From IMG/VR virus record IMGVR_UViG_2585427750_000020: a stretch of 10,372 bases of DNA. One strand, written 5' to 3'. The stretch comes from a virus (taxonomy: Duplodnaviria > Heunggongvirae > Uroviricota > Caudoviricetes). The position numbers and the translations under genes were made by a program. The notes under the pieces were generated by a model. That model was not told where the DNA came from, did no database searches, and worked only from the letters and a program-made list of their open reading frames with translations. Below, one piece after another: positions 3,380 through 4,693 of the stretch (the stretch's first letter is position 1; each line of letters begins with the position of its first letter).

Positions 3380-4693
3380 TCATTCTCCTGTTCTGCCTGT
3401 ATCACTGCCCACTTCATCCAGCCCCTTGACATCCTGCCACGGCCCGTCACCAAACCTGACCTGCAAATGCTGAAAAAACCCCTGAACCCGTGTGGCATCT
3501 TTGGGGTCAAGAAAGGTCAGTCCGGTGATGAGTGCGCCATCTGTATCCGGGAACCAGCCATTGCTGTTTGTCTCAATAATGCTCGCCGGCCCCAGACGAA
3601 AACGGATTTGTGTCTCCCCCGGGTCGCCCTTCGGTCCCTGAGGTCCGGTTGCCCCCACCGGGCCAGCCGCACCTGTTTCTCCTTTCGGTCCCTGTGGGCC
3701 TGCCGGGCCTGCCGCACCGGTATCTCCCTTTGGACCCTGTGGACCTGCATTTCCCGTCAGACCGGTCTCTCCCCGCTCTCCCCTGTCACCTTTCGGCCCC
3801 TGCGGGCCTGCCGGACCAGCATCACCTGCCGGTCCCCGTTCGCCGGTTGCCCCGACAGGGCCGGTGTCACCGCGCTCTCCCTTATCACCCTTCGGCCCCT
3901 GAGGACCCGCGGGCCCCTGTTCCCCCTTTGGCCCGGGAGGTCCCACCACGGTGGGGATTCGGTTTACGGCCTCTTCCGCCGCTATCCTGCTTTGTTCCGC
4001 TGACTGTGCGCTTTCTGCTGACTCCCGGGCTTTTTCTGTTGCGGTCGTTGCATCCCTGGCTGCATTACCGGCTGCACTTTCTGCCGTCTTTCTTGACAAT
4101 TCAGCTTCTGCTGCACTTTGTGATGACTCACTGGCTTTTTGAGCGGCCGCAGAGGCCGAGGACGAGGACGCCTCCTCTGACTGCTTTGCAGCGGCTGCAC
4201 TTTCTGCCGCCTGCCGGGCTGACTCCGATGCATCCCCTGCTGAAGTGTCAGCATTTGCAGCGCTCTCTTCTGCCTGACTGGCTGATATGCCGGCATTCCT
4301 CGCTGATGTCTCCGCCTCTCCGGCATTCTTCTTCGCCTCCTCTGCGTGACGCGCCGCTTCTTCCACCATCAGTTCAAAACGACGCATTGCCTCCGGCCGG
4401 ACGTCATCCTCCGACATGGCACCGAGAAAATCATTCAGCGTCCCCGGTTGAGAATCTTCATACACGGTGATGGTCCCGGCATGTGATGGAGGGAATCCCT
4501 CCACCAACAGAGTGACGCTGTACTGACCATACTCGACGTCCATGCTGTAACGCCCGGCTTCATCCGGATTTTCTGAGGCCAGCGTGTTCACCACCACCGT
4601 GGTACTGTTACGTTTTGCTTTCAGCTGGATTGTGCAGTTCTGTACCGGTTTTCCTGTGCCGTCTTTCAGTACACCTGAAATCTTTACTGCCAT
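3380..4693 (-). CDS. stf: Side tail fibre protein with lambda Stf-like N-terminus, Ala/Ser/Glu-rich low-complexity segment, collagen-like Gly-X-Y tract and a distinct C-terminal domain (437 aa)
   Basis: The N-terminus MAVKISGVLKDGTGKPVQNCTIQLKA...YGQYSV...GFPPSHAGTITVYEDSQPGTLNDFL matches lambda Stf as recalled. The likely start is ATG 4693..4691; the track ORF starts 2 codons earlier at a GTG. A GGGGTGA Shine-Dalgarno precedes it. Gene order J-lom-stf is as in lambda. Confidence 0.9.
   Translation of the reverse strand: MAVKISGVLKDGTGKPVQNCTIQLKAKRNSTTVVVNTLASENPDEAGRYSMDVEYGQYSVTLLVEGFPPSHAGTITVYEDSQPGTLNDFLGAMSEDDVRPEAMRRFELMVEEAARHAEEAKKNAGEAETSARNAGISASQAEESAANADTSAGDASESARQAAESAAAAKQSEEASSSSASAAAQKASESSQSAAEAELSRKTAESAAGNAARDATTATEKARESAESAQSAEQSRIAAEEAVNRIPTVVGPPGPKGEQGPAGPQGPKGDKGERGDTGPVGATGERGPAGDAGPAGPQGPKGDRGERGETGLTGNAGPQGPKGDTGAAGPAGPQGPKGETGAAGPVGATGPQGPKGDPGETQIRFRLGPASIIETNSNGWFPDTDGALITGLTFLDPKDATRVQGFFQHLQVRFGDGPWQDVKGLDEVGSDTGRTGE
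3611..3943 (-). repeat. Collagen-like triple-helix repeat: 37 uninterrupted Gly-X-Y triplets within stf, degenerate tandem repeat at DNA level
   Basis: Protein residues 253-363 run GPPGPKGEQGPAGPQGPKGDKGERG...GPQGPKGDPGET. On the plus strand the recurring unit is CCTTTCGGTCCCTGTGGGCC-like. Confidence 0.9.

Follow-up and report, generated by a model that had tools for sequence, protein, structure and literature searches.

The collagen-like tract of an EPclA-type side tail fibre gene in a lambdoid Escherichia coli prophage: length alleles and module boundaries

Introduction

What does a long run of Gly-X-Y codons encode in a prophage gene, and is its length fixed? The question is raised by a 10,372-nucleotide (nt) stretch of DNA from the IMG/VR virus record IMGVR_UViG_2585427750_000020 (Caudoviricetes), referred to below in its full length as the window, in which a minus-strand gene contains a collagen-like tract. 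A first-pass annotation, made from the letters alone, had described the tract as a degenerate tandem DNA repeat that would permit in-frame expansion or contraction and recombination between prophage copies, thereby changing fibre length, and that would be awkward for short-read assembly. Here we analysed the gene, its relatives and its alleles, and we conclude with a probability of roughly 0.9 that the tract forms the collagen-like stalk of a homotrimeric side tail fibre of the EPclA family, encoded by a lambda-like (siphovirus-type) prophage of attaching-and-effacing or Shiga-toxigenic E. coli.

The phages that bear such fibres move Shiga toxin (Stx) and type III effector genes from one E. 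coli strain to another, so that how far a fibre reaches and what its tip recognises matter for which strains can be converted, a link that was already made in 2012 (PMC3368898). The fibre belongs to a family that was purified and characterised in 2012 (EPclA), which the first-pass annotation had not recognised; the finding is real but ordinary. What is added here is a survey in which the 37-triplet allele is the commonest and stable, a map that places length variants at short microhomologies in recurring peptide motifs, and two mosaic junctions within the tract.

Results and Discussion

The fibre gene is a single open reading frame (ORF) whose translation gives 437 amino acids (aa) and a stop codon (3380-4693, minus strand). 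The start in our ORF list is a GTG at 4699, while RefSeq and the literature use the ATG at 4693, and RefSeq homologues of the gene are annotated at 1314 nt. From N- to C-terminus the protein contains phage_tail_N (PfN), an Ala/Ser/Glu-rich region (PCoil), the collagen tract (Col) and Phage_fiber_C (PfC). Pfam searches matched phage_tail_N (PF08400) with E = 2.8e-68 over profile positions 1-133 of 134 (residues 3-135 of the 439-aa ORF), Collagen (PF01391) with E = 3.9e-18, and Phage_fiber_C (PF06820) with E = 2e-36 over profile positions 1-64 of 64. Amino acids 3-95 also match residues 1-93 of the 'Tail fiber protein' chain in PDB entry 9e7m (E = 1.2e-51). By composition, the 116 aa of the PCoil region between PfN and Col include 37 Ala, 23 Ser and 16 Glu with 1 Leu, 3 Ile and 3 Val; its coiled-coil conformation is predicted.

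This architecture was named EPclA, PfN-PCoil(116)-Col(111)-PfC with 437 aa, by Ghosh et al. (2012, PMC3368898), who described seven to eight copies each in strains Sakai and EDL933, Sp15 included. The protein of the window has every sequence feature by which the family is recognised, namely PfN, a PCoil of about 116 aa, a single uninterrupted Col and PfC, and its identity to the Sakai and EDL933 copies exceeds the 90% aa level used for EPclA. At the nucleotide level the gene aligns without gaps over the full 1320 nt to copies in lambdoid prophages and Stx1- and Stx2-converting phages at 97-98% identity (97.6% for the EDL933 copy). Compared with H0004 of VT1-Sakai (Sp15), 426 of the 437 residues are identical (97%), and all 11 substitutions lie outside the collagen domain, which is the same at 111 of 111 positions. 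Moreover, the published forward primers for EPclA and for PfC match exactly, at 4676-4693 and 3589-3607 respectively. Sakai and EDL933 EPclA proteins (ECs2717 in Sp14, ECs2941/VT1-Sakai H0004 in Sp15, and Z2340) share with the fibre studied here their 437-aa length, their domain order and the position of their genes after J and lom.

The physical properties of EPclA have been published (PMC3368898). Analytical ultracentrifugation and multi-angle laser light scattering (MALLS) showed recombinant EPclA to be trimeric; PfC and PCoil each trimerise alone, PfC as judged by size-exclusion chromatography (SEC) and MALLS, and trimeric PCoil melts near 50-52 °C. The Col domain has a collagen circular dichroism spectrum and melts at 42 °C without hydroxyproline. 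The molecule appears as a dumbbell: its thin Col stalk measures 28-30 nm (32 nm would be expected from 111 residues) and is hinged to a coiled coil of 14-16 nm. Transferred from recombinant EPclA through the identical collagen sequence, these data suggest that the protein of the window would likewise be a homotrimer with a collagen triple helix.

A second known system bears on the N-terminal end. PDB 9e7m is the N-terminal collar domain of Ur-lambda gpStf, wrapped around the gpV/gpM junction. Lambda (Ur-lambda) gpStf and the fibre have this domain in common (gpStf residues 1-94), both genes follow J and lom, and both fibres are trimers that have a hinge and, in the proximal part, a coiled coil, features that would hold for the window protein by its homology to EPclA. 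The distal halves differ: lambda Stf has no collagen domain and instead carries a gp37-like intertwined coiled coil and an OmpC-binding domain, whereas the fibre of the window has Col and PfC and no intact tfa gene downstream. Lambda Stf requires the Tfa chaperone.

Translation of the minus strand upheld the count and the position of the collagen tract given by the first-pass annotation: one unbroken run of 37 consecutive Gly-X-Y triplets, residues 251-361, at 3611-3943. Pro occupies the X position in 18 of the 37 triplets, and the commonest triplets are GPK (6), GPQ (5) and GPA (4). The heptapeptide GPQGPKG, around which the tract had been said to be built, occurs five times, with first triplets 5, 16, 23, 28 and 34. 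The 20-mer CCTTTCGGTCCCTGTGGGCC, which had been picked out on the plus strand, corresponds in reverse complement to codons for GPQGPKG; with up to three mismatches allowed it was found three times against 0.01 expected, and none of 200 shuffles reached three, so that its enrichment is far above chance.

The description of the tract as a degenerate tandem DNA repeat stands as to degeneracy and holds only loosely as to tandem arrangement, for there is no classical array. Tandem Repeats Finder (TRF) reported only a 45-nt unit in two copies (84% matches, 3658-3748) and two mini-arrays of a 9-nt unit in two copies, and the longest exact direct repeat inside the tract is 11 nt. A further repeat search found a 56-nt family at 99-nt spacing with 61-80% identity. 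When the tract's 9-nt blocks were shuffled as a control for autocorrelation, the signal beyond the 9-nt coding period stood above the control at two shifts only, 99 nt (z = 3.3) and 198 nt (z = 2.7). A spacing of 99 nt equals 11 triplets, which is the step seen in the 26-triplet alleles described below and in published collagen domains of 78 and 144 aa.

The G+C content of the tract is 70.9%, against 54% for the window. We considered whether synonymous codons had been selected to break up the repeats and rejected the idea: among 3000 synonymous-codon permutations the longest repeat averaged 13.9 nt and 28% had a maximum of 11 nt or less, so that the observed 11 nt is typical of random synonymous choice and gives no sign of selection for or against DNA identity. 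Nor is Col unusually conserved or diverse, its nucleotide diversity among same-length copies being 0.038 against 0.031-0.057 in the other domains. Two plus-strand ORFs (3095-4003, 302 aa; 3610-4470, 286 aa) run across the sequences for Col and PCoil. Stop codons are absent from the tract in two of the three frames on the plus strand and, judged by composition and stop codons, these ORFs look like by-products of composition and not like genes; we set them aside.

Does the tract vary in length? Triplets were counted across relatives in two surveys, one of proteins (the 120 best cluster representatives, with the run counted after the conserved sequence VNRIPTVV) and one of 80 IMG/VR loci. The proteins have 5, 8, 9, 14, 15, 16, 19-22, 25-28 or 32-38 triplets. 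Among the 57 IMG/VR tracts with both boundaries, a sample ranked by similarity to the query and hence biased toward 37 triplets, 46 have 37, five have 27, two have 38, and one each has 8, 9, 32 and 36. Phage records carry the tract with its flanks as 633 nt (37 triplets), 642 nt (38) or, in YYZ-2008, 489 nt (21), and the published collagen lengths are 63, 78, 81, 111, 114 and 144 aa, with 111 the commonest in EPclA (PMC3368898). Neither length nor sequence is therefore uniform among homologues: lengths run from 5 to 38 triplets, and the same-length copies comprise 28 distinct nucleotide alleles among 39.

All length differences counted among intact alleles are whole triplets and in frame, without exception. 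In the shorter alleles the two sides of the deletion meet cleanly inside a peptide motif that recurs in the tract, in most cases GPQGPKG|D/E and otherwise GERG|, TGAAGP| or GPVGATG|. In the 8-triplet allele GPQGPKG copy 1 runs into copy 5; of the two 19-triplet alleles, one runs from copy 1 into copy 3 and the other from copy 2 into copy 5; the 26-triplet alleles run from copy 3 into copy 5 or from one GERG into another; and a 32-triplet allele (P0026) runs from one TGAAGP into another. Where the junction could be placed in the DNA, it lies in 8-10 nt of microhomology. Thus a 45-nt deletion from copy 3 to copy 4 (L034) has the 8-nt microhomology CCACAGGG and a 261-nt deletion (L066) the 8-nt microhomology CCGAAGGG, while the 9-nt mini-array at 3696-3714 has lost 9 nt in L058 and L053 (10-nt microhomology) and gained 9 nt in L039 and L043. 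The 27-triplet allele is a 90-nt deletion of ambiguous placement. Taken together, these alleles bear out the proposal of in-frame expansion and contraction, and the published electron microscopy (EM), with about 30 nm for 111 residues, agrees with the proposal that fibre length follows tract length.

A comparable principle is found in BclA of the Bacillus anthracis exosporium filament, a trimeric collagen-like stalk that is also capped by a C-terminal trimerising domain. Its triplet number is strain-specific, and this polymorphism reportedly determines how long the filament is (Sylvestre 2003). PDB entry 1wck (BclA) matches the Gly-X-Y region of the fibre with E = 2.9e-8; however, BclA has unrelated terminal domains, is glycosylated and sits on the spore surface rather than in a virion, so the likeness is one of principle and not of family.

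Homologues of 494 and 540 aa (P0008, P0009, L060) might be taken for natural fibres with two PfC domains, an explanation that we rejected because in each a frameshift carries translation into the frame of the downstream ORF, which overlaps that of the fibre. The frame of that 89-aa ORF is open for 44 codons further upstream (3379-3510, minus strand), over the fibre 3' end, so that single-base frameshifts in PfC fuse the fibre to the downstream PfC domain. The fusions are probably pseudogenes or sequencing errors and not products of programmed frameshifting.

The tract also contains boundaries between fibre modules. Short-tailed Stx2 phages make up about half of the phage records with a match, and in them the match is confined to 3461-3929. 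Their fibres are of the EPclB type (933W L0121/Z1483, Sp5 ORF67 ECs1228 and Min27 ORF64, Min27 being placed in Traversvirus), which has the Col-PfC module in common with the fibre of the window and, unlike it, has two collagen domains around a Pf2-type segment, the first interrupted by GDPGGPAG. The second collagen domain of Min27 ORF64 matches the tract exactly at triplets 7-37 and differs in the first six, and the PfC beyond the collagen is nearly identical. Fibres with an S74-type C-terminus share approximately the first 27 triplets and diverge thereafter. These two points of divergence indicate two module boundaries inside the tract, which fits the modular picture drawn in 2012 (Ghosh), and through them the suggested recombination between phage copies finds indirect support. 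One S74-type homologue (P0092), E. coli/Shigella-like in sequence and lying on a 3.5-Mb contig, is labelled 'collagen-like surface-anchored protein SclE [Streptococcus pneumoniae]'; the record is probably contaminated or mislabelled.

These observations suggest how the side tail fibre could work. By transfer from EPclA with its identical Col paralogue, the 111-residue Gly-X-Y segment would fold into a thin triple helix of about 30 nm, melting at 42 °C without hydroxyproline. On the strength of the gpStf homology, PfN would anchor the fibre at the collar, where the tail tube meets the tail tip. PfC would form a distal knob that contacts the cell surface and speeds adsorption. Each triplet would contribute about 0.87 nm (three residues at the quoted 2.9 Å per residue), so that triplet number would set fibre reach. 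Rare deletions and duplications between microhomologies of 8-11 nt in the dispersed, codon-degenerate motif copies would generate the in-frame length alleles, and the tract would double as a crossover zone joining different N- and C-terminal fibre modules.

Several points weigh against assigning the tract to a working side tail fibre. The experimental support comes from EPclA, that is, from another allele in another prophage, and is carried to the window by sequence likeness. An IS2 element about 2 kb downstream and a truncated cif gene bear on whether the prophage can be induced. The receptor and the adsorption role proposed for EPclA-type fibres are carried over by analogy from lambda Stf, and an effect of tract length on host range or adsorption is conjecture. 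Finally, an AlphaFold2 model of the last 13 collagen residues with PfC, built from a 14-sequence alignment, reached a mean predicted local distance difference test score (pLDDT) of 53 and a predicted template modelling score (pTM) of 0.36; with such low confidence the predicted structure gives the distal-knob fold no independent support.

A more ambitious reading treats the tract as an evolvable ruler of reach and a universal recombination linker, and not as a passive spacer. Microhomologies of the GPQGPKG type would let lambdoid and short-tailed Stx phages alike reset fibre length in steps of 5, 11 or 18 triplets, matching the thickness of the host O-antigen or capsule. In addition, the frame-neutral Gly-X-Y register could join any N-terminal attachment module to any C-terminal receptor module with folding kept, the candidates for the latter being PfC, the S74 type and the downstream PfC-only cassette. 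The length alleles and the two mosaic junctions on which this reading draws are observed, and its effect on fitness or host range is conjectural; we regard it as rather doubtful.

If slippage were frequent, the tract could be a hypermutable contingency locus that switches fibre length, or the gene on and off, within a lineage. A periodic coding sequence with several length alleles, a 9-nt mini-array in two copies that is a site of one-triplet gain or loss, and the occasional 1-nt frameshift allele are what such a locus would lead one to expect. However, exact repeats reach only 11 nt and TRF finds no multi-copy array, and the differences counted among intact alleles preserve the frame. The tract with 150-nt flanks was present in 718 of 5426 complete E. 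coli genomes; in 534 complete-genome records, spanning the O157, O26, O111, O145, O55 and O127 lineages, the best copy aligns ungapped at 99% identity or more. Such constancy across many lineages, together with 46 of 57 IMG/VR tracts, points to rare events. We conclude that the 37-triplet allele is the commonest and is stable, and that length change is rare and not phase-variable; a contingency locus is very unlikely.

Might the protein instead be prophage cargo, a host-mimicking collagen-like adhesin or virulence factor expressed by the lysogen, similar to Scl1 and Scl2, and not part of the virion at all? The gene does lie between lom and a low-G+C (39-45%) effector cluster of nleH and cif, and collagen-like surface proteins of pathogens are known adhesins in the background literature. 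However, the N-terminal domain is homologous to the collar domain of lambda Stf, which is built into the tail; read by eye, the N-terminal sequence MAVKISGVLKDG shows neither a hydrophobic leader nor a signal peptide nor an anchor motif; and the domains flanking the collagen are those of phage fibres. Moreover, the same Col-PfC module forms the Sp5 tail fibre, where an antibody to the EPclB fibre labels the tail ends in immuno-EM, and in G+C content and strand continuity the gene matches the tail operon and not the effector cargo. The hydroxyproline-free triple helix of Streptococcus pyogenes Scl1 and Scl2, stabilised by charged residues and proline, invites comparison, yet their flanking domains are not homologous to those of the fibre. 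In Scl proteins, which are adhesins anchored in the cell wall, the trimerising globular domain is at the N-terminus. An adhesin role in place of a side tail fibre is thus highly improbable.

The expectation that the tract would trouble short-read assembly proved correct as to the difficulty, while its cause is better sought in paralogous copies than in internal repeats. Of the 80 IMG/VR contigs, at least 16 break off within the fibre gene, especially in the PCoil and Col regions (L030, L035, L044, L047, L056, L057, L061-L064, L067, L069, L071, L072, L075 and L077), which fits assembly breaks at a multi-copy prophage gene. In complete E. coli genomes with the tract, the median number of matching places per genome is 10, and these are the better explanation of the trouble, since exact internal repeats, at 11 nt or less, are too short to confuse an assembler and fall below the k-mer lengths usual in short-read assembly. 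For genome practice, a paralogous repeat gene of this kind breaks short-read assemblies and can mislead the assignment of copies.

That the tract itself, or the shorter alleles elsewhere, could be assembly artefacts of a repetitive multi-copy gene, as such contig ends and copy numbers might suggest, is scarcely credible. For the window allele it is excluded, since ungapped copies with at least 99% identity occur in the 534 complete-genome records and further ungapped copies in phage records; shorter alleles, too, occur in finished genomes (81 aa in Sakai Sp11 and Sp12; 489 nt against 633 in YYZ-2008) and some short-allele proteins come from contigs of 4.2-5.7 Mb.

Table 1. Features of the window, with their coordinates and the evidence for each
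Feature	Position	Strand	Evidence
Side tail fibre gene, EPclA type	3380..4693	-	ORF, Pfam, RefSeq, primer, H0004 identity
PfN domain, aa 1-133, tail attachment	4295..4693	-	PF08400; PDB 9e7m match
Ala/Ser/Glu-rich PCoil region, 116 aa	3944..4294	-	Composition; published PCoil
Col domain, 37 Gly-X-Y triplets, aa 251-361	3611..3943	-	Translation, Pfam, H0004 identity
PfC domain and C-terminal tail, aa 362-437; trimerisation module, presumed distal receptor-facing knob	3383..3610	-	PF06820; primer match; published SEC/MALLS
GPQGPKG copy 1, triplets 5-7; left junction of 8-, 14- and 19-triplet alleles	3887..3907	-	Allele alignment, repeats, junctions
GPQGPKG copy 2, triplets 16-18; two mismatches to the 20-mer of the first-pass annotation	3788..3808	-	
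GPQGPKG copy 3, triplets 23-25; joined to copy 4 in L034	3725..3745	-	
GPQGPKG copy 4, triplets 28-30; exact match to the same 20-mer	3680..3700	-	
GPQGPKG copy 5, triplets 34-36; right junction of 8-, 19- and 26-triplet alleles	3626..3646	-	
9-nt x2.1 mini-array GGGCCTGCC; one-triplet gain/loss site (36- and 38-triplet alleles)	3696..3714	.	TRF, junctions
45-nt x2 local duplication, 84% matches	3658..3748	.	TRF
Two 56-nt copies 99 nt apart (3762-3817 and 3861-3916), 80% identical	3762..3916	.	Repeat search, autocorrelation
89-aa ORF, second Phage_fiber_C domain	3109..3378	-	PF06820 E = 4.7e-34; RefSeq
lom (Ail/Lom outer membrane protein), upstream neighbour	4758..5417	-	PF06316 E = 4.7e-50
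J, tip attachment/host specificity protein (central fibre)	5450..8926	-	GpJ domains E = 1e-38 to 1e-42

The surroundings of the fibre gene show that the window covers the end of the tail genes and the effector cargo of a lambdoid prophage of the enterohaemorrhagic/enteropathogenic E. coli (EHEC/EPEC) type. Among complete E. coli genomes, the best match to the whole window covers 90% of it at 95.9% identity. On the minus strand the order is K (NlpC/P60), I, J, lom and the fibre gene, then the 89-aa ORF, nleH, cif and IS2 (Table 1). With J upstream, the fibre gene sits in a lambda-type tail operon. The cargo downstream differs from that of VT1-Sakai, where the fibre genes lie by the yehV attachment site with dinI-like and ykgJ-like genes between; here it consists of nleH, truncated cif and IS2.

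The 89-aa ORF has its ATG one base past the fibre stop codon, is 37% identical to the fibre's own PfC, and occupies the position held by tfa in lambda. RefSeq annotates it at 270 nt as 'phage tail fiber C-terminal domain-containing protein'. A Pfam search of the window proteins gave no match to the Pf2 or Tfa families, the next ORF after the fibre gene being this PfC-only protein, and in related genomes only fragments of tfa are present, further downstream. A PfC-only ORF of 89 aa follows the fibre gene in the EPclB phages as well; its equivalent in Sp5, ORF68, is non-essential and has been proposed to be a reservoir for fibre variation.

Beyond it lies a gene for an nleH-type effector kinase (2122-3012, minus strand; OspG kinase domain, E = 1e-10). 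Its true start is likely the ATG three codons inside the listed TTG ORF, giving 293 aa as in RefSeq. With a G+C content of 39%, against 45% for cif and 54% for the window, nleH is a typical exchangeable effector locus 3' of tail fibre genes. The gene for the type III effector Cif (1275-1898, minus strand) is truncated at its 3' end, with about 202 of 275 codons left, and its homology to the intact 828-nt cif of strain UTME-6 ends at window position 1291. At 834-1244 there is a transposase ORF of 136 aa with a Pfam HTH_Tnp_1 domain, which we take to be IS2 orfA; the element extends past the left end of the window, and in related genomes an IS3-like transposase of the IS2 family is annotated under window positions 1 to approximately 1290.

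At the other end of the operon, the listed ORFs of K (9750-10319) and I (9172-9852) overlap by 103 nt (9750-9852). The true start of I is probably near 9753, RefSeq homologues of I being 582 nt long with a 4-nt overlap with K.

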